A stretch of 64,000 bases of DNA from a virus, in the IMG/VR virus record IMGVR_UViG_3300027749_000070, positions 1 through 64,000 of that record. One strand, 5' to 3'. Positions 4,801 through 24,395 of this stretch are shown one piece after another. The notes under the pieces are model-generated. The model searched no databases. It saw only the letters and a program-made list of their open reading frames with translations, and was not told the DNA's origin. Position numbers and translations under genes: made by a program. Position 1 is the first letter of the stretch. The number at the start of each line of letters is the position of its first letter.

Positions 4801-5907
4801 ATTACCGGTTACACTCAAAGTACCACCAGAGAAGGATAATCCATAACCAATTGAATTTGGATTAATAGATAATCCATCTGTGCTTAAAGTTAAACCAGAA
4901 TTATTTGCTAATAGAATAGAATAAATAAAATTACTTTGTGTTAATCCAGAGTTATTTGAAATCGCAAGAGATACGGTACCCGTAAACACCGGTGTTTGCC
5001 AAGATGCAACACCATTAGCATCAGATGTTAAATATTTACCATTTCCTTGTGACCCATCTACATATCTAAACGAAGGTTGTGTTCCAAAGACATGAAGCTT
5101 ATGTGTTGGACTTGCTGTTCCAATACCAACTAACCCAAATGGAATAATAACAGAGGAAGTTGCATTGGACGACCCAGTTGCATTAACTCTAACTACATTT
5201 AAAATATTTACAGTATTTCCACTTACGGAACTTTGCGTACCACTTAAATATATAACATTATTGTCGGGGTCAAGAATGCCAAAATTAGGAGCATATATAT
5301 CAAGAAATCTATTAACGCCGCCTCTTGCCGTAATTTCTATGTTAGGAAATGAGTTAGAATTAAGGTATATACTAGACGCATCAATAGCCCCATTTACGAA
5401 TAAAGCAGGAGTATTAAAACTATTAGAAGCGGTAAATAAACTTATAAATGTCCCACCATCATAAATATTAGAATTAGTTATAGAATTAACATCATTAAAC
5501 TTAGGAATATACCCAGCAGTACCATTTATACCCTGACTAGAATATGGAATCCATATAGGAATACCTGAACTATTTACTGATAATATGTAACTTGCCGTTG
5601 CTGGTCCAAGTTGGCTAAAAACAGATGATGTCAAATATCCAACTTTTAACACACCATTAGCGAAAGTTAAACCATAATTATCTATATTAACAGATAAATT
5701 ATAATTATACAAACCAGAAGCAGTACTTGCGGTTAAGCCATTTCCTATATTATAAGATAGCGATTGTATTCTTTCAATACCGTCACTATTCATAGAGTAC
5801 CAATTACCATCTGTTTTAGGGTAAATTATAGAAGTATTACTACTTGGTGTTGCAACAATAGAAACTTGCTGCCATTCTTGTATATTATATATTTTATTAA
5901 CGCTCAT
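1900..5907 (-). CDS. Long tail fibre / adhesin-like virion protein
   Basis: 1335 aa, G/S/T/N-rich; GxGLT repeats, NIAIG/NxxIG trimeric beta-roll repeats, VGIGTxSP fibre motifs, C-terminal HNLNT motif. Confidence 0.75.
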   Translation of the reverse strand: MSVNKIYNIQEWQQVSIVATPSSNTSIIYPKTDGNWYSMNSDGIERIQSLSYNIGNGLTASTASGLYNYNLSVNIDNYGLTFANGVLKVGYLTSSVFSQLGPATASYILSVNSSGIPIWIPYSSQGINGTAGYIPKFNDVNSITNSNIYDGGTFISLFTASNSFNTPALFVNGAIDASSIYLNSNSFPNIEITARGGVNRFLDIYAPNFGILDPDNNVIYLSGTQSSVSGNTVNILNVVRVNATGSSNATSSVIIPFGLVGIGTASPTHKLHVFGTQPSFRYVDGSQGNGKYLTSDANGVASWQTPVFTGTVSLAISNNSGLTQSNFIYSILLANNSGLTLSTDGLSINPNSIGYGLSFSGGTLSVTGNFGINTGSGLTYSGNTYSVNLGINSGLTFSGTSVIIQIGSGLTLSNGSLASTGLVSNGVTNSFPYFNTSTSLTSSVIYQVSNNVLIGTSSNVGSKLYVAGSFSFTNDGIINSINIGRGLGNNILFGNRALSQATPGNYNIAIGDNALVSNQSTDNIAIGFSASNSISGAKQNIGIGNYVLSNSNSPNNVAIGYRAAFGVSDAGVYIGTYAGYAGGYNVVIGYNSGGNSSGSGNIIIGYNSGVNSSGSNNILLGYAAGVNFLGSYSVIIGGFDTTGAYASLNNSLNTLFISDGFGNLRIYSPSTGNILMGTTSETGSKLVVSGSASFYGNLKIVDSTQAAGRYLVSDSNGNTSWYMPVGLGMTISGYTFSVNLQTNSGLTVSMSGLAVNPNIAGYGLTYSGGSMSFTTNINASQGYIPYYNTVTSLTSSVIYQTSSNILVATTSNDGSRLQIAGSVSIYGKLKIIDGTQAANRLLVSDQYGIASWTSSTLLGSSFFAQGGNSFGATATLGTTDNRNMQVIAGGNNIILFATSSMTLNVPIVYSNANSGYSSLNNNGLIITNTTNGANGIGLNAASGGNPNLDFYINSVVKAGIGYTNIAPIGAKGLGITNLVASPYDAQLVLDEVGSLQWRDGSNGGSSIFRWSIDKNGAITQSVAQLLGSLSTSAYSITQTWNTSGTPTAIKMNITDTNSATASLFLDLQKSGVSQFNVDKNGNTIIGTASSDGSKLVVSGSASFYGNLKIVDSAQAAGRYLVSDSNGNTSWYMPVGLGMTISGYTFSVNLQANSGLSVSMSGLAINPNIAGYGLTYSGGSMSFTTNINASQGYIPYYNTTTSLTSSVIYQTSSNILIGTISNNGARLQIAGSVSIISATGNAFQLKDTTQGAGYILNSDVNGFGSWKPYKYSGTQSFTANLSQVIAHNLNTNFYIIQLFDYTTGEEILGAYTTRGLTQATITLSSNVSSCGIVIMG
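2210..3863. repeat. ~425-bp intragenic direct repeat (approx. 2210-2635 and 3438-3863)
   Basis: Copies offset by 1227 nt, both encoding GSKLVVSGSASFYGNLKIVDS...RLQIAGSVSI. Confidence 0.9.
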
Positions 5908-5911
5908 TTTA

Positions 5912-6643
5912 TTATCCTATTATATTTATTCTACCATTTGTTATATCACCATCAGTAGTTAGTATAACTGAATTAACATCATTTATTTGAATATTGGCTG
6001 TTATAAAGTTATTACTTACTCTTACTGAGTAAACTATATCTGTTGTGTTTAAACTATGTGTTATAGTCATCGGAATATTAGATGAGCTAGAAAAACTTGC
6101 TGAGTATTTAACATTTGCAGGTGTAGTATTAAAGTTTGGATCTGGTCCAGCTAAATCAGTAATTCTACTAAAATCTGTTAAATAAGTAAGTGTGCCGCTA
6201 CCAGAATAAGTTCCGGAACCAGTGAAAGTCAAGGTACCATTTATTATTATAACTCTACCCGCATTATCTAATGAACCACTTGCACCAATTGTTAATCCAC
6301 CATATACTAAATATTGATAATTAGTTGGTATACTAACTGTACCGTTAGTTATTAAATATTGAGTTCTAGTTACATTACCAGCTGATGGATTTGTTATAAA
6401 ATCTGTCCAATCAGATGATGAACCAACCCAAGGTCCAGGTAGTAGTTTATAATAACTACCATTTACACCAACAACCATACCAGTTCTTCTTCTATCATTT
6501 GGTATAGCGTCACGTTCGGTAGTGGAACTCACATTTCTTAAACCATCAATACCAAATAAAGGGTCAATAACAGGATATGTATCCTGCGTATCTGTTGGAG
6601 CTAGAAATCCCGTAACTGGTATTGATCCTGTATATCCTGCCAT
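5912..6643 (-). CDS. Virion structural / fibre-associated protein
   Basis: ERDAIPNDRRRTGMVV motif seen in phage structural proteins; C-terminal ITHSLNT motif shared with the fibre. Confidence 0.55.
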   Translation of the reverse strand: MAGYTGSIPVTGFLAPTDTQDTYPVIDPLFGIDGLRNVSSTTERDAIPNDRRRTGMVVGVNGSYYKLLPGPWVGSSSDWTDFITNPSAGNVTRTQYLITNGTVSIPTNYQYLVYGGLTIGASGSLDNAGRVIIINGTLTFTGSGTYSGSGTLTYLTDFSRITDLAGPDPNFNTTPANVKYSASFSSSSNIPMTITHSLNTTDIVYSVRVSNNFITANIQINDVNSVILTTDGDITNGRINIIG

Positions 6644-19587: not shown

Positions 19588-20685
19588 TTATTTTAATATA
19601 AAATGTTCTTCAATTAATGAGTTTTTGGAAGAATTTATACTACGCTTTGTTATGCACAAATTAGAAATATCAGCAATTTCTTCAGCAGGTATATTATTGG
19701 AAAAGCCATAAAAAGTAGATATTTTATGATCTATTGTTGGATATAACTTACTTGTAGAAGTGTTAGACAAATAACCTTTTATGAACTCATTATCATAGTA
19801 GTCATATCCTTCCCATTTTTCATATAATTCTTTTTTAAATTTATTTGTAAAATTTCTTACTTTCTTTTTGTAAATTTCCCAATCAGTCAATAGCTCATCT
19901 TTAATTACAAATCCATTTATCTTTTTAGTTTCCAAAATCTTATAATATATTTCTTTTACTTGTGAAACATTTTCAACACCATATTTTTCTATACAAGTAT
20001 TTTTAATTTTTTCACGAATTTTTAATATATTATTTTTGTAATTATTTTTATGCTCTTCTGTTTTAAAAATCCAGTCAACTCCATATTTTTCTATGAATGT
20101 GTTCCTAATTTTGCTAACAATTACATCTTTATTTTCGCTAATTCCTTTTTTAAATTTGTCAGTTTTTGAATAAGAATCAACACCATATATCTCAATTAGT
20201 GTTTTTTTAGATTTTTCTTTAAATTCATTAGAAGACATCCATTTCTTATTTTGTTCTTTTGATTCTTGCGTCTTAAACCAAGAATCAACTCCATATTTCT
20301 CTAACATTGTTTTCTTTCCTTTTTTTGAGCCCTTTTTAATGCCTTTCCATTTTAAAGATTCAGTTTCTTTAAACTCGTTTGTTTGTGAGTATGATTTAAC
20401 TCCATATTTTTCTATACATGTTTTTTCACGCTCTATATTTTTACATTTAAAGCAAGAATAATATCCTTTATTATTTCTTTCAGTGTTAACATGGTATTTA
20501 TTTATTGACATTTCTGTTTCAGAAGAGCATATTTCGCATATTGCTGTAATTCTGTTATTTGAACCTTTTGGTATATTTAATGGATTTACAGATATTTCTT
20601 TTTCTTTTATCAGATAACCCAATTTTTCATAATATGATTTATTTCTTTGATTTATTTTAACATTAATTTCCTTTTCTTTTATCAT
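19588..20685 (-). CDS. Free-standing HNH-type homing endonuclease with EKYGV repeats
   Basis: Zn finger, several (E/I)(K/I)YGV repeats, C-terminal TIDHKIS...NLCITKRSINSSK. Confidence 0.7.
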   Translation of the reverse strand: MIKEKEINVKINQRNKSYYEKLGYLIKEKEISVNPLNIPKGSNNRITAICEICSSETEMSINKYHVNTERNNKGYYSCFKCKNIEREKTCIEKYGVKSYSQTNEFKETESLKWKGIKKGSKKGKKTMLEKYGVDSWFKTQESKEQNKKWMSSNEFKEKSKKTLIEIYGVDSYSKTDKFKKGISENKDVIVSKIRNTFIEKYGVDWIFKTEEHKNNYKNNILKIREKIKNTCIEKYGVENVSQVKEIYYKILETKKINGFVIKDELLTDWEIYKKKVRNFTNKFKKELYEKWEGYDYYDNEFIKGYLSNTSTSKLYPTIDHKISTFYGFSNNIPAEEIADISNLCITKRSINSSKNSLIEEHFILK

Positions 20686-20775
20686 ATACCTTATATGATA
20701 AAAATAACTATAAGTTCTGTTTAGAACTAATTTGAAAAAGTTAAAACTTTTTCACTTAATTTTCATATAAAACTT

Positions 20776-20883
20776 ATGAATAAAAATGAAAAACTCGAAA
20801 AATTAGAGTTATTAAAAAACAAAGCGAGCGAGCTGAAAAAGGACGTGGATTATTATAATGCACTCCAGCTCGCTCTTTTTTAG
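20776..20883 (+). CDS. Family B DNA polymerase gp43B, first segment (35 aa, ends at motif B QLAL)
   Basis: MNKNEKLEKLELLKNKASELKKDVDYYNALQLALF*; not in the ORF track; preceded by a middle-type promoter. Confidence 0.75.
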   Translation: MNKNEKLEKLELLKNKASELKKDVDYYNALQLALF

Positions 20884-20917
20884 CCCCCACCCACTTGTGG
20901 TTGGGGGCATAGGACTA
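20878..20917 (+). other. 40-nt coding-gap element (stop plus GC hairpin) inside polymerase motif B
   Basis: CTT|TTT TAG CCCCCACCCACTTGTGGTTGGGGGCATAGGA CTA|AAA; removal restores QLALKLVLNGSYG. Confidence 0.75.
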
Positions 20918-21517
20918 AAATTAGTATTAAACGGCAGCTATGGCGCATTTGCAGCAGCATATTTTGTATTGTTCAATAACCACGTTGCTTCCAGTATTAC
21001 TGCACAAGGTAGAGATTTAACTAAAACAATGAATCGTGTTAATGAAGATTATTGGTATAATCAATGGCATTTAGATACATTATTACATAATGACGTTTGT
21101 ATAAGAAATGTTAAACAAATTATAGAAACTAATCATGTTAGCATCTATGCGGATACTGATAGCTGTTTCTCGGAAACACTTGTGAACACAAACAATGGAG
21201 AAAAAACAATTGAAAATTGGTATAATGAAAACATCAAAAATGGATCAGCAGGTGAAACAATTAAAGGTCACGAATCGGTTTTAACAAATGATAAAATATT
21301 AAATTGGTCTGAAAGTAATAAAATTTATTATACTCCGGTTAAAAGAATTATTAGACATAAAGTATCTAAGCCGAAATGGAAATTGAAAACTAAATCTGGC
21401 AAAGAAATTATAGTTACTAACGACCATTCTATGATAGTGTTTAGAGACGGTATTAAATTGGAAATTAAACCATCAGAAATATTAAAAACTGATAAAATTT
21501 TGGTAATTAAAAATTAA
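20918..21517 (+). CDS. Family B DNA polymerase motif B-C segment fused to split-intein N-half
   Basis: KLVLNGSYG, ITAQGR, YADTD, then intein SCFSETLV...VTNDHS. Confidence 0.9.
   Translation, partial: KLVLNGSYGAFAAAYFVLFNNHVASSITAQGRDLTKTMNRVNEDYWYNQWHLDTLLHNDVCIRNVKQIIETNHVSIYADTDSCFSETLVNTNNGEKTIENWYNENIKNGSAGETIKGHESVLTNDKILNWSESNKIYYTPVKRIIRHKVSKPKWKLKTKSGKEIIVTNDHSMIVFRDGIKLEIKPSEILKTDKILVIKN
21161..21514 (+). mobile_element. Split intein N-fragment (118 aa) at the Pol-c site
   Basis: Block A S-C-F-S-E-T-L-V follows YADTD; block B IIVTNDHS; ORF stops with no intein C-terminus. Confidence 0.9.
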
Positions 21518-21545
21518 TATATACAGATAAATATATCAGCATAGA

Positions 21546-22655
21546 ATGGAACTAAATAAAAAATTTATAGAATGGTTTAATAAAAATAAAAACGCAGAAG
21601 AATATAATAAAATATTCAATTTGTATTTTAATAATCTATCCAAATGTAGAATTTGTAATAATCCAATATATTATTATGATTCTACATTTAGAATAGATAA
21701 ATCAGGAATTTTGCAATTACATAAAAAATCATGTTTAACATCTAAAAATGTAAATAAAGAATATACATTATCCATATGTGAAGAATGTTTGATTAAAAAA
21801 TATCCAGAATATAATAACAAAAATAAGCCAAAGGTTTTTAATCAAATGAATTATTTAACTGAATATGCTTTTAATATACCAAATGACATTTCTTTAATTT
21901 GGATGAAAGAAAAATATGCTATTACAGAAGAAAATCTAACAAAAAAACATGGCAAAAAAATTGGCAAAGAAAAATGGATAAATTATTGTAATAAACAATC
22001 CAAAACTAATACATTTGAATATAAGAAAGAAAAATATGGTTGGGATAAAGAAAAATTTGACGACTATAACCGTTCAAGATCGGTAACATTAGAAAATTTG
22101 ATAAAAAGGAATGGTACTGAAGAAGGTTTAAATATTTGGAAAAATTATTGTGATAGGCAAAAATATACGACAAGTCTAAACTATTTTATAGAAAAAAATG
22201 GATTGGAAAAAGGCACTGAAATATATGAAAATTTTTGTAAAAAAAGATTATTTGGAGCAGGATATTCAGAGGTATCTAAAAAATTATTTGATGAACTGAA
22301 AAAACGTTTTGTTAATAATAATTATACAGTATATTACGCTGAAAATGAGTGGTATTTTTGTGAAAAAGATAAAGGATATTATTTATTGGATTTCTTTATT
22401 AAAGAATTGAATATTGGAATAGAATTTAACGGAGATATATGGCACGCAAATCCACTTAAATACAAGCCACATGATAAGCCTATTTTATTTCAAAAAGATA
22501 TTACTGCCGAATTTATTTGGCAAAAAGATAAAATAAAAAATGATTTTCTGAAAACAAAATTAGATAAATTACTAATAATTTGGGAATCAGATTTTTACAA
22601 AGACGGAATTGATAGAACAATAGATAAAATATTAAAAGAAATAAATGATAAATAA
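21546..22655 (+). CDS. Free-standing Vsr/DUF559-like homing endonuclease between the intein halves
   Basis: K(Y/H/N)G.E.G repeats; LDFFIKELNIGIEFNGDIWHANP...D..K...IIWESD; own late promoter at 21515. Confidence 0.8.
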   Translation: MELNKKFIEWFNKNKNAEEYNKIFNLYFNNLSKCRICNNPIYYYDSTFRIDKSGILQLHKKSCLTSKNVNKEYTLSICEECLIKKYPEYNNKNKPKVFNQMNYLTEYAFNIPNDISLIWMKEKYAITEENLTKKHGKKIGKEKWINYCNKQSKTNTFEYKKEKYGWDKEKFDDYNRSRSVTLENLIKRNGTEEGLNIWKNYCDRQKYTTSLNYFIEKNGLEKGTEIYENFCKKRLFGAGYSEVSKKLFDELKKRFVNNNYTVYYAENEWYFCEKDKGYYLLDFFIKELNIGIEFNGDIWHANPLKYKPHDKPILFQKDITAEFIWQKDKIKNDFLKTKLDKLLIIWESDFYKDGIDRTIDKILKEINDK

Positions 22656-22800
22656 AGTAGAACATGAAAAAATAGAATATTTTTTTGATGAAATAGAATC
22701 GTGTGAAGTGATTGGTAATTTTGAAGACGAATATGTTTATGATGTTGAGGTGGATGATGAAACACATACATTTATTGGAAATGATATATTAGTACATAAT
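22645..22800 (+). mobile_element. Split intein C-fragment (52 aa)
   Basis: VYDVEV...HTFIGNDILVHN followed by +1 Ser (SLFV). Confidence 0.92.
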
Positions 22801-23988
22801 TCGCTTTTTGTATCATTTAAACCAGCTATGGATCATTGTGATTGGAGAAATTTATTTTTTGATAATTTAGATAAACTAACAAAAAAGTTTTTCATAATAA
22901 CAGGTAATTCACAAGTTAATACAGACAATCCTAATTATCATGGCTCTTGGAGTTTTGATCCAAATGATGACCCTGAAACAATTGGTCATATTAAAGACAT
23001 AATCGAAACTGATTGCGATTATATAATTGTTGATGGTTTTTGGATTAAAAATCGTGATTTCGAAAAATTCATATCCGAAAATAATTATCAATCAAAACTT
23101 AAATGGAATTGGTCAAATGAACTTGACTTCATACAAGGTTTAGATTATTACCGATATGCTGGTTATTTCAAGAAATGTCTTGAAGAATATGCAGATAGCT
23201 ATGGTGTGACTAATAAGGAAGATTTTGAATTAGAAAGAATTAGTGAATCAGTTATTTATTTAGCTAAGAAAAAGTATATTCAACACATCGTACATGAAGA
23301 TGGTATTGATTATGATAGATTAACTTATTTATATCCAAAAGGAGTTGAACTTGTTAGATCTTCTACGCCATTATTTGCGAGAGATAAAATTGTGGATATT
23401 ATTAAATACTTATTTACTAATCCAGATACATTTACTATTAGAGAATTACTTAAATTGGTTAAGAACCTTAGAAAAGAATTTGACTTATGTGTCCCAGATA
23501 AGATAGATGATATCTGTATGCAATCGTCATGTTCAAACTATGAGGAAAAAGTTCTTAATGATAAAGAAAAATTAGAGTTTATTAATGGTGCACACTTTGC
23601 GGTTAAAGCATCAGCTTATTATAACCACTTATTACACAAGCATAAAGATATACAAGCTAAATATGACTTCATCAAATCAGGAACTAAAATTAAGTATTAC
23701 TATTGTAAAGACACTACTATTGGTAAAGTATTTGCTTATATGCGTGGTTCTTATCCAATTGAAATAGCACCCGAAATAGATCTAAATGAACAATTTGCAA
23801 AATGTATCTTATCACCGATTAACTCGATTATTGAGCCATTGGGTCTTCCAGAAATTACAAAAAGACTTTCGGTCGTGTTAGATATATTTGGTGGATCTTT
23901 ACAAAAGAAGAAAAAAGAAGAACAAGAAGAGGATGATTATAGTGATGAAGAATACAACAATAGAAAATGGGATAATTGGGATTATTAA
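22645..23988 (+). CDS. Intein C-half fused to family B polymerase palm/thumb
   Basis: SLFV after HN; FELE, AKKKY, KGVELVRSSTP, KSGTKIKY. Confidence 0.9.
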   Translation: MINKVEHEKIEYFFDEIESCEVIGNFEDEYVYDVEVDDETHTFIGNDILVHNSLFVSFKPAMDHCDWRNLFFDNLDKLTKKFFIITGNSQVNTDNPNYHGSWSFDPNDDPETIGHIKDIIETDCDYIIVDGFWIKNRDFEKFISENNYQSKLKWNWSNELDFIQGLDYYRYAGYFKKCLEEYADSYGVTNKEDFELERISESVIYLAKKKYIQHIVHEDGIDYDRLTYLYPKGVELVRSSTPLFARDKIVDIIKYLFTNPDTFTIRELLKLVKNLRKEFDLCVPDKIDDICMQSSCSNYEEKVLNDKEKLEFINGAHFAVKASAYYNHLLHKHKDIQAKYDFIKSGTKIKYYYCKDTTIGKVFAYMRGSYPIEIAPEIDLNEQFAKCILSPINSIIEPLGLPEITKRLSVVLDIFGGSLQKKKKEEQEEDDYSDEEYNNRKWDNWDY

Positions 23989-23999
23989 AAATAAATAAA

Positions 24000-24395
24000 A
24001 TGAATATGAAAATAATTAATAAAATTAAATCTTTATTTAAGAAAGAAAACTCCGAATTAAATGTTTCGGCACCTGTGTATGTAATACCAGAACCAATCGG
24101 TGAAATACACTATTTTGATTTCAAATATGAAGAACCAACAATGGAAACTAAAATTATGGCACAAAAAATAGGTTTAGATTTAGTAAACGTAAAACGTGAT
24201 CCAAATATGGTTATTACATCAGGATATATGGATTTTAAAGAAAATGTAGAATTAAGTCCAGAAGAGATCTTATTTCAAATGAAAAAGGTAAAAAGAGCTT
24301 CAGAAAAAGTTTTGGAAAAAATGACTGAAACTGAGGCTAAACATCATAAAAGTTTAGAGTATTTTAAACATAAAGCAGAGCAACATGATAAGTAA
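24000..24395 (+). CDS. Protein with permuted gp23-like 'QxIGLDLVxV / G.xxYxDFKY' segment
   Basis: PIGEIHYFDFKY, KIMAQKIGLDLVNVK, GYMDFK; parallels 17999..18475. Confidence 0.5.
   Translation: MNMKIINKIKSLFKKENSELNVSAPVYVIPEPIGEIHYFDFKYEEPTMETKIMAQKIGLDLVNVKRDPNMVITSGYMDFKENVELSPEEILFQMKKVKRASEKVLEKMTETEAKHHKSLEYFKHKAEQHDK

Follow-up and report, generated by a model that had tools for sequence, protein, structure and literature searches.

Family-B replicases split at the tip of the fingers domain have been described in the T4-like phages 25, 31, 44RR, 65 and 133 (Petrov et al. 2006, 2010; PMC3061061, PMC2988022), in which the gp43A and gp43B cistrons lie 2 bp to 3 kb apart; gp43 split at this point and a split Pfu polymerase are both active (PMC3061061, PMC2988022). 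PMC2677866 and PMC3061061 further cite an unlinked split PolB in Methanothermobacter, with its halves encoded 85 kb apart, and a split-intein PolB in Nanoarchaeum equitans. Translational bypassing is represented by the T4 gene 60/MobA cassette (Bonocora et al. 2011; Manning and Atkins, bioRxiv 10.1101/2022.08.31.505936), and by the byp elements of Magnusiomyces capitatus mitochondria, as cited by Manning and Atkins. The "fractured gene" layout, in which a split intein is combined with a free-standing endonuclease, has been known since 2009 (PMC2677866).

Here we analysed the first 64,000 nt of the viral record IMGVR_UViG_3300027749_000070 (hereafter the window), part of a 91,246-bp contig. On the basis of sequence comparison, we propose with a probability of roughly three in four that the locus summarized in Table 1 is the B half of a two-subunit family-B replicase of a huge phage, carrying in addition a bypass cassette and a split intein. 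The C-terminal half of a family-B polymerase was confirmed to be the sole polymerase coding sequence at the locus, with motifs B and C and the thumb present and the exonuclease and motif A absent. From the ATG at 20776, 34 sense codons are followed by TTT and TAG (stop at 20881-83), while the motif B lysine, the first residue of KLVLNGSYG, is encoded at 20918 in the +1 frame; the QLAL residues preceding this lysine are matched in the aligned N-termini of contiguous homologues. In the N-extein region, the Pfam DNA_pol_B profile matched 20915-21217 only (profile positions 157-249, E 7e-11), and the C-terminal piece, 22645-23988, corresponded to profile positions 266-412. The protein families matched by the C-extein are annotated 'DNA polymerase' (E 2e-33), and it shares 64% identity with its contiguous counterpart in LR756502. 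Once the gap and the intein are subtracted, the mature B subunit amounts to 34 + 81 + 395 = 510 aa. The first-pass annotation had placed the start about 30 residues ahead of motif B and the subunit at about 510 aa; both estimates held, at 34 and exactly 510 residues. It had also assigned the locus its own promoter, a claim that fared less well: a sigma-70 promoter scan remained at chance level, and the motif AACTTTT-N(13-16)-TATAAW, which recurs 4-7 nt ahead of the ATG upstream of the gene in many relatives, occurred in the window at chance frequency without enrichment.

Table 1. Features of the gp43B-like locus (positions refer to the window).
Feature	Position	Strand	Basis or remark
Divergent free-standing homing endonuclease	19588..20685	-	Pfam DUF7487 E 1.8e-18; phrog_3339 'homing endonuclease'
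Promoter-like motif (AACTTTT, spacer, TATAAA)	20745..20771	+	Ends 4 nt before ATG; putative function
gp43B codons 1-34 (second fingers helix)	20776..20877	+	Aligns with N-termini of contiguous homologues
5' stem-loop, 3' arm ending at take-off codon	20826..20875	+	Folding, covariation
Coding gap, 40 nt	20878..20917	+	TTT, TAG, GC hairpin, A-rich tail, landing codon CTA 20915-17
N-extein remainder (motif B lysine to DTD of motif C, 81 codons)	20918..21160	+	Pfam DNA_pol_B; intein-less relatives aligned
N-terminal split-intein half (118 aa, from Ser) and stop	21161..21517	+	Pfam Intein_splicing E 1.6e-8
Free-standing endonuclease between intein halves	21546..22655	+	phrog_22677 E 1e-47
C-terminal split-intein half (52 aa, ends HN)	22645..22800	+	Pfam Intein_splicing profile positions 116-155; ORF coordinates
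C-extein (rest of palm and thumb, 395 aa, from +1 Ser, plus stop)	22801..23988	+	phrog_1918, phrog_262

The missing N-terminal half was sought across the entire 91,246-bp contig. Neither the PF03104 (exonuclease) profile nor the motif A part of PF00136 (first ~150 positions) gave a match, and tblastn with the gp43A-like proteins of two relatives returned a best E of 0.76, extending to the whole contig the earlier statement that exonuclease and motif A coding is absent from the window. Eleven larger related records, in contrast to this contig (~36% complete), do contain a stand-alone gp43A-like gene with the exonuclease and motif A (500-530 aa), present as one ORF per near-complete genome or large record (n = 11; 501-531 open-frame codons) and separated from the B gene by at least 41-172 kb, and no gp43A-like sequence was detected within 6 kb of the B gene at any of 77 related loci. 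The unlinked N-subunit anticipated by the first-pass annotation was therefore found among relatives and not on the contig itself. Because eleven relatives carry a distant stand-alone gene and the contig is only ~36% complete, the A partner of this phage should be encoded off the contig.

The A half of the relatives, which is most similar to RB69/T4 gp43, aligned to RB69 gp43 residues 185-493, motif A included (E 7e-24), and stops approximately 20 residues past the aligned part, just beyond the first fingers helix. The B half did not reach RB69 in PDB sequence and profile searches, which matched Sulfolobus PolB1 and herpesvirus polymerases, so that its start was placed on RB69 through the position of motif B. 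We take the motif B lysine to be K560 in RB69 numbering. With the end of the A half and a B start 34 residues before this lysine, the break falls between the two long fingers helices. Modelling of a contiguous B-half homologue with AF2 was of poor quality (pLDDT 54), below what a fold search requires, and resolved no more than a long N-terminal helix; it plays no part in this placement. In all relatives with a readable start, the B gene begins within a few codons of one position, and because of this common start the split is, as judged from the sequences, ancestral to the clade. The gp43A/gp43B-type split that had been suggested for the locus is accordingly real and clade-wide, with a common start and stand-alone gp43A-like genes, and no full-length PolB, which would have spoken against it, was seen in two complete huge-phage genomes.

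We envisage an ancient division of the polymerase gene at the fingers tip, in the past of the clade, which left an A half with the N-terminal domain, exonuclease, motif A and first fingers helix in a gene tens to hundreds of kb away; A and B would presumably associate by way of their antiparallel fingers helices, in the manner of the T4-like gp43A/gp43B enzymes. As in those enzymes, the cut lies between the fingers helices and separates an exonuclease/motif A subunit from a subunit with motif B, motif C and the thumb. Unlike them, the cistrons of the relatives are not adjacent but at least 41-172 kb apart, the split is fixed over the whole huge-phage clade, and the B gene has two more interruptions. 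The distant location of the halves recalls Methanothermobacter and N. equitans PolB, of which the N. equitans halves are joined by a split intein; in contrast to those splits, located in the palm or at an intein, the unlinked split described here lies at the finger tip and is without intein repair.

Within the B gene, the anatomy and the conservation of the coding gap were directly observed. A similar hairpin gap of 36-48 nt was present in 46 of 70 anchored relatives, the other 24 being contiguous without a gap, and the gap-bearing set comprised 34 distinct alleles, the window allele included. Each allele is interrupted at one of six codons (A33, L34, V37, G40, S41 or Y42), all within the 27 nt encoding PolB motif B. 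The codons flanking the gap, designated take-off and landing codons, were matched at five of the six sites (GCU>GCA/GCU, CUU/CUC>CUA, GUU>GUA/GUU, GGU>GGU, UCU>UCA); the window allele has CTT (20875-77), the last of codons 1-34, as its proposed take-off codon and CTA as its landing codon. Site F had no matched landing codon (UAU > AAC, GAC, UAA, CAA, AGC), with pairing at just two of three positions in eight of ten cases. A stop codon occurred 0-1 codon past take-off in 29 of the 34 alleles, either directly (L013, L015, L043, L051-54) or after one sense codon, as in the window and most others. The frame after the landing codon was open to the end of the gene in all 34. Premature landing triplets in the gap tails numbered 0 against 2.3 expected, a depletion that was not significant (p = 0.09). 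The window hairpin (20883-20908) is independent of assembly, since contigs from three other freshwater runs cross it with zero differences. It has no second copy in the contig; no gap element was detected elsewhere in ~1 Mb of flanks, and in 2.7 Mb of near-complete genomes the gp43B site was the sole match to a narrower TAR-C5...G5 pattern. A further GC hairpin at 87217, outside the window, was considered as a coding gap and rejected as an intergenic, terminator-like hairpin. An ARAGORN search of the window detected no tRNA.

From this comparison of gap-free and gap-bearing alleles, which supports the earlier proposal that the B subunit is made by recoding, we infer that the ribosome leaves the Leu34 codon CUU, skips the gap and resumes once the peptidyl-tRNA has re-paired on CUA; such a hop would restore QLAL-KLVLNGSYG, as in T4 gene 60. 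Excision of the 40-nt insert from the mRNA by some unknown processing and ligation step, giving a continuous frame and no hop, would suit a comparison that shows only that the gap is untranslated, as well as the site-F alleles without matched codons; it is nevertheless improbable, given the lack of an Rfam match at the locus (20600-24100) and the presence of matched codons at five sites, a nearby stop, an A-rich tail and a 5' stem-loop, all of which fit tRNA re-pairing. Nor is any intron class of 36-48 nt known, which counts against removal from the mRNA. Somewhat less probable again is a further break of the gene, whereby a 35-aa peptide ends at TAG and downstream re-initiation yields a four-piece enzyme. 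No start codon stands at the resume point (which reads CTA, GCA or AAC, among others), the catalytic helix itself is interrupted, even between the Tyr and Gly of motif B, and the matched codons would be left without explanation, whereas the frequent stop 0-1 codon past take-off and a G-run located 5-8 nt ahead of the resume point in most alleles would be expected of re-initiation. A +1 frameshift at CTT-T, with the hairpin read through and 13 residues added to motif B, seems very unlikely. In the window allele the +1 frame is open across the gap, and for this allele taken by itself such a product is conceivable; but in 13 distinct relatives every frame is closed by a stop, all residue classes mod 3 are represented among the gap lengths with no requirement for multiples of three, and the insertion would directly precede the catalytic lysine. 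Reassignment of a stop codon, considered for the in-frame gaps, was rejected, as each of TAA, TAG and TGA is represented and the majority of gaps shift the frame.

RNA folding predictions gave structure on both sides of the take-off codon. The 121-nt region containing the 5' stem-loop folded with z = -5.1, and the closing helix is maintained by compensatory changes. This stem-loop was confined to gap-bearing alleles, with a mean MFE of the 5' region of approximately -22 to -24 kcal/mol at sites A-C compared with -7.5 kcal/mol in gap-free alleles (all gap-bearing versus gap-free, Mann-Whitney p = 1.4e-6). The gap hairpin itself, GC-clamped and 10-12 bp long, begins 5-6 nt past the take-off codon; its energies range from -17 to -31 kcal/mol with many differing inner stems, and covariation keeps the stem. 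Like T4 gene 60, the polymerase gene combines matched take-off and landing codons, a nearby stop, a take-off hairpin, a 5' stem-loop and an AU-rich 3' gap, and in both cases an untranslated gap of tens of nt interrupts an essential replication gene ~35-45 codons into an ORF that starts at a gene split. Unlike gene 60, the interrupted gene encodes a polymerase rather than a topoisomerase, six insertion codons are used instead of two, the stop usually stands one sense codon further on, the hairpin begins 5-6 nt past take-off, and the gene split is older than the cassette; moreover, the 5' stem-loop is conserved among the polymerase-gap alleles and not among the gene 60 homologues. With the byps the element shares a short insert that forms a GC hairpin within AT-rich coding DNA and is skipped by the ribosome (presumably so here), as well as tolerance of imperfect landing codons, although byps are dispersed genome-wide and the present element was found in one gene only and is tied to an endonuclease.

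The endonuclease encoded upstream comprises a zinc-ribbon-like N-terminus, DUF7487 repeats and a C-terminal HNH-like nuclease. In its AF2 model (pLDDT 82), residues 277-364 superposed on HNH nucleases with Z 5-6.7, the best superpositions being the Gme HNH nicking endonuclease (Z 6.7) and Cas9 HNH domains (Z 5-5.7), and D318-H319, N341 and N350 were invariant across 16 homologues. Foldseek alone returned only matches with E > 0.01, Pfam HNH did not match the protein or its homologues, and no match to T4 Mob proteins was obtained at E <= 1e-3. Because Pfam shows DUF7487 only, we use the label HNH-like; the divergent upstream position given in the first-pass annotation stood, and the predicted fold resembles that of HNH nucleases, a family that Pfam did not recover here.

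Mobility of the gap was likewise observed directly. An endonuclease homologue in the same position and orientation accompanied 21 of 34 gap-bearing and 0 of 18 gap-free distinct alleles (Fisher p = 5e-6), and the scatter of gap states over the tree amounts to at least 14 gains or losses. Two loci that are 90-95% identical (L018 and L020) differ by an endonuclease gene of ~860 bp and a 39-nt insert. The linked HNH endonuclease (HNH-like here) and its hit-and-run loss are shared with T4 gene 60/MobA; in contrast to MobA, the endonuclease is divergent, upstream and without detectable similarity to T4 Mob proteins. We consider it reasonably likely, with somewhat less confidence than for the locus as a whole, that these elements constitute a second, independent family of bypass cassettes, in which an HNH-like endonuclease and a hop hairpin of 36-48 nt spread as a pair from one freshwater huge phage to another. 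The hairpin would land at any of the six motif B codons and shield the DNA target of the endonuclease, with hopping restoring the catalytic helix; each of two endonuclease subfamilies would have its own group of insertion sites (A-C or D-F).

The second interruption lies at motif C. The N-intein half is homologous to the contiguous mini-intein of a relative (L058), and a related strain (run X5) carries an intein-less allele with the joint 21159 to 22801. The gene between the intein halves, whose end is overlapped by the C-intein ATG by 11 nt, encodes DUF7487-like repeats and a Vsr/PD-(D/E)xK-like C-terminus with a weak match to REase_MTES_1575 (E 0.12), suggesting a nuclease of the Vsr/PD-(D/E)xK-like class. 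The same gene was found between the intein halves at L043, L063 and L073-75. An N-intein with a stop, a separate ORF, a C-intein ending HN and a subsequent +1 Ser make up the fractured-gene layout, and comparison with relatives supports the earlier suggestion that the B subunit is produced by trans-splicing. As in the fractured genes of PMC2677866, N-extein with N-intein, endonuclease ORF and C-intein with C-extein follow one another in the gene for a phage enzyme of DNA synthesis, and the candidate endonuclease is Vsr-like; unlike those genes, the polymerase gene adds a split and a coding gap to the intein, and no PolB interrupted at motif C was noted among the enzyme types listed in that report.

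Taken together, these data are consistent with a B gene that would have been invaded twice by homing-endonuclease cassettes, each with its own repair device. The first cassette would consist of the upstream HNH-like endonuclease gene and the 40-nt hairpin insert interrupting the motif B codons, the insert protecting the DNA against the linked endonuclease; the second would be the split intein, with trans-splicing predicted to yield the 510-aa B subunit from exteins of 115 and 395 aa. Both devices accompany homing endonucleases and have the look of repairs to selfish insertions; the initial idea that their stacking could gate replication timing found no support. That the locus is a decaying relic, with the functional polymerase encoded elsewhere, is scarcely credible despite three interruptions in one gene and no partner on the contig, since all 34 gap-bearing alleles are otherwise intact, the triple arrangement recurs (L043, L063, L073-75) and the two complete huge-phage genomes contain no other PolB.

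Efficient long-range bypassing in phages has so far comprised T4 gene 60 and its topoisomerase-gene homologues, and in 2022 was still regarded as unique. With the polymerase gap come 34 natural variants at six sites with matched gap-free controls, the variants differing in take-off codon, stop position, hairpin and 5' stem-loop; because such variants and controls exist, the sequence rules of hopping and the proposed immunity role of the inserts are directly testable. Gene callers will give such polymerases as fragments or pseudogenes, which calls for caution in annotation. Finger-tip splits had previously been recorded in a small number of T4-like phages, in every case with the two cistrons adjacent; a clade-wide split with distant halves would mean that an essential replicase is routinely assembled from unlinked genes.

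The source contig, whose initial 64 kb form the window, is 91,246 bp long, has a G+C content of about 27% and is ~36% complete by CheckV. The Pfam DNA_pol_B profile matched the polymerase only at profile positions 157-249, in the motif B piece, and at 266-412, in ORF 22645-23988; the closest database relatives of the polymerase piece were uncultured huge phages of 462-735 kb (37-64% identity), followed by Prevotella Lak phages (~35%). Across the entire contig, an exonuclease domain profile revealed no N-terminal half, the motif A portion of the polymerase profile gave no match, and tblastn with two relatives' gp43A-like proteins (exonuclease plus motif A) did not find the N-terminal half. These searches bear out the first-pass annotation, which described a polymerase beginning at the fingers and lacking both elements. 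The ATG at 20776 (+ strand) opens a frame of 34 sense codons followed by TTT and TAG (20881-20883). The Leu34 codon CTT occupies 20875-20877 and a second Leu codon, CTA, 20915-20917; the motif B lysine follows at 20918, 40 nt on in the +1 frame, which stays open from there through motif C. An AACTTTT-N(13-16)-TATAAT-like motif at 20745-20775 ends just 4-7 nt 5′ of the ATG and recurs at equivalent positions in L018, L020, L022, L024, L032, L037, L071 and L080 (loci of relatives), which would imply a nearly leaderless mRNA without a Shine-Dalgarno sequence.

We then compared the gene (gp43B: motif B, motif C and thumb) with its relatives. Of 77 IMG/VR relatives, all those with a readable 5′ end place the start ~34 residues ahead of the motif B lysine, and none of the 77 has gp43A-like sequence within 6 kb of gp43B. 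Six genomes, complete or nearly so, encode one separate exonuclease plus motif A ORF of 501-531 open-frame codons each, and IMG/VR holds 67 stand-alone gp43A-like loci. Contig names common to the two locus sets gave A-to-B distances of ~41-43 kb (three contigs), ~96 kb (three contigs) and 109, 132 and 172 kb (one contig apiece); in the huge phage LR756502 it is 133 kb, and on the linear record LR756501 about 620 kb. In LR756502 (642 kb), the gp43B homologue is a single contiguous 474-aa ORF with an equivalent start, gap-free and intein-free, with structural genes upstream. RB69 gp43 residues 185-493, motif A included, align to the A half (E = 7e-24), which terminates in a charged helix ~20 residues past the aligned part; the B half opens with a matching charged helix, placing the break at the finger tip. 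Two complete relatives contained no PolB besides the split gene. The split is ancestral to the clade and its halves are unlinked; a finger-tip split with an unlinked partner is almost certain, and in this phage the predicted A partner must lie >20.7 kb from the B gene on its upstream side or >67 kb on its downstream side. Finger-tip splits in T4-like phages 25, 31, 44RR, 65 and 133 yield active enzyme, and Pfu polymerase engineered with such a split is fully active (PMC3061061, PMC2988022); the T4-like cistrons are 2 bp to 3 kb apart, whereas the halves in huge-phage relatives are at least 41-172 kb apart.

Three side observations concern the two halves. Most relatives end at a conserved DIFGG(F), and the polymerase C-terminus in the window (23890-23985) continues for ~30 further residues, first lysine-rich, then acidic, with aromatic residues last; similar extensions occur in L013, L014 and L042, and this one may be a partner-binding tail. 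L061, L065-L067, L071 and L081 lack a variable segment of ~70 residues that separates motif C from the conserved palm/thumb region (LR756502 gp43B residues ~133-206). In the 735-kb phage LR756501, a Vsr-like endonuclease-type ORF of 234 aa with repeated Cys-rich modules (L004:2676-3380) adjoins the gp43A-like gene, suggesting that the A half too is a homing-element target.

Among 70 relatives that could be anchored, 46 carry a gap of 36-48 nt, placed after one of six codons, and 24 have a contiguous gene; the gaps represent 34 distinct alleles, window included. All gaps are built alike. A stop codon lies 0 or 1 sense codon past the putative take-off codon in 29/34 alleles; a GC-clamped hairpin of 10-12 bp (-17 to -31 kcal/mol) begins 5-6 nt past the take-off codon; and a tail that is 78% A+T comes after the hairpin. 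At sites A-E, the take-off codon and the final gap codon match; the final gap codon of site F pairs with the Tyr anticodon at only 2/3 positions in 8/10 loci. Gap lengths fall in all classes modulo 3, every reading frame of the gap contains a stop in 13 alleles, and all alleles are open past the landing codon, to the natural gene end (354-467 codons) or the split N-intein end; on these grounds, we argue that the gap is left untranslated and that the gene would still be functional. Contigs from three further freshwater runs of different studies cross the insert with zero differences, so it is real DNA. In one freshwater run (X4), a divergent variant has 88 other letters in place of 87 at 20893-20981 (the 3′ part of the hairpin and following sequence), which points to cassette alleles co-occurring in nature.

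Parts of the motif C intein in the window and codon positions of the gap among relatives
Feature	Position	Strand	Detail
N-intein half	21161-21514	+	118 aa
Endonuclease ORF	21546-22655	+	369 aa
C-intein half	22645-22800	+	52 aa, ends HN
+1 Ser	22801	+	C-extein residue 1
Gap site A	after Ala33		6 loci
Gap site B	after Leu34		23 loci + window
Gap site C	after Val37		2 loci
Gap site D	after Gly40		4 loci
Gap site E	after Ser41		1 locus
Gap site F	after Tyr42		10 loci

The inner hairpin stems vary greatly among alleles while complementarity is kept, with compensatory changes in 9/16 pairs (RNAalifold, 14 site-B alleles). A 5′ stem-loop, closed by a second helix, reaches the take-off codon with the end of its 3′ arm; gap-bearing alleles have this stem-loop, those of sites A-C most clearly, and gap-free alleles lack it. 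Its mean folding energy is ~-22 to -24 kcal/mol at sites A-C versus -7.5 in gap-free alleles (all gap-bearing versus gap-free, Mann-Whitney p = 1.4e-6). The element is specific to gp43B: across ~1 Mb of flanking DNA, C4...G4 hairpins of the gap type occurred at no other site, and in near-complete genomes totalling 2.7 Mb the gp43B site alone matched the narrower TAA/TAG plus C5...G5 pattern. The combined evidence fits gene-60-type bypassing, and judged from sequence we give ribosomal bypass of the 40-nt gap a probability of roughly 0.75. Manning and Atkins found the gene-60-type cassette only in topoisomerase genes and termed it unique (bioRxiv 10.1101/2022.08.31.505936); our literature search returned no report of a bypass cassette in a polymerase gene.

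Downstream, residue 1 of the motif C intein seems to be Ser (21161-21166). A start at Ser 21161 is the best reading, since splicing there would restore the DTD-SLF of intein-less relatives with canonical block A spacing, and since L063 (L063:4007) has Val where others have Cys at position 2, a change that would inactivate a Cys1 intein, not a Ser1 intein. In L058 the same intein is contiguous; the fractured intein, with the same endonuclease, is also found in L043, L063 and L073-75; and in a related strain from run X5, 21159 is joined to 22801, an intein-less allele. The polymerase intein is laid out as a 'fractured gene' in the sense of Dassa et al. (PMC2677866), and trans-splicing of its halves is highly probable. 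In L047-L049 (~5491-5992), the post-landing frame stops after 191 codons with only ~500 nt to the C-extein, which resembles a split intein whose halves have no endonuclease gene between them, possibly a later stage of the fractured-gene pathway.

The upstream neighbour, annotated at first pass as a divergent HNH endonuclease, is indeed divergent (19588-20685, minus strand); its C-terminal domain has a predicted HNH-like fold with invariant His and Asn residues. A homologue in the same place and orientation accompanies 21/34 gap-bearing versus 0/18 gap-free alleles (Fisher's exact test, p = 5e-6). The homologues form two groups: those linked to sites A-C are 51-60% identical to the window protein, those linked to sites D and F 35-39%. 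Gap states are scattered on a tree of the C-terminal protein part, which implies at least 14 gains or losses and 23 site changes. Three pairs are direct examples. The sister taxa L013 and L014 have the gap at site E and site B, respectively; L037 (site F) and L038 (site A) do not differ in their C-terminal proteins, with DNA homology starting just past motif B; and L018 and L020, 90-95% identical, are set apart by a ~860-bp endonuclease insertion and, within the Tyr codon, a clean 39-nt insert. Where gap-bearing alleles lack the endonuclease, the genes upstream are ordinary ones, a pattern suggestive of hit-and-run loss. All six insertion points fall within 27 nt, in coding DNA of the highest conservation, suggesting selection to disrupt an endonuclease target. 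Target disruption by an insert has been shown for T4 MobA; we infer the same role for the gp43B gap, and the hairpin insert is more probably than not immunity against the linked endonuclease. This endonuclease and the one between the intein halves share a short repeated module of EKYGV-x-S-x-S-x-T type (DUF7487), and their nuclease domains differ (HNH-like and Vsr/PD-(D/E)xK-like, respectively), a combination suggesting that nuclease classes have exchanged a common DNA-binding scaffold.

Collectively, the proposed replicase architecture holds: an unlinked A subunit, predicted from the separate gp43A-like genes of relatives, plus a mature B subunit that would have 510 aa (34 + 81 + 395), matching the ~510 aa first estimated. 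Comparison with relatives' gap alleles and inteins supports its assembly from two translation products, one of which would require recoding. The suggestion that the stacked devices form a replication timing gate found no support. The triple arrangement of split, gap and fractured intein recurs in at least four other lineages, and the stack would be better explained by successive selfish insertions into gp43B, each bringing its own repair.
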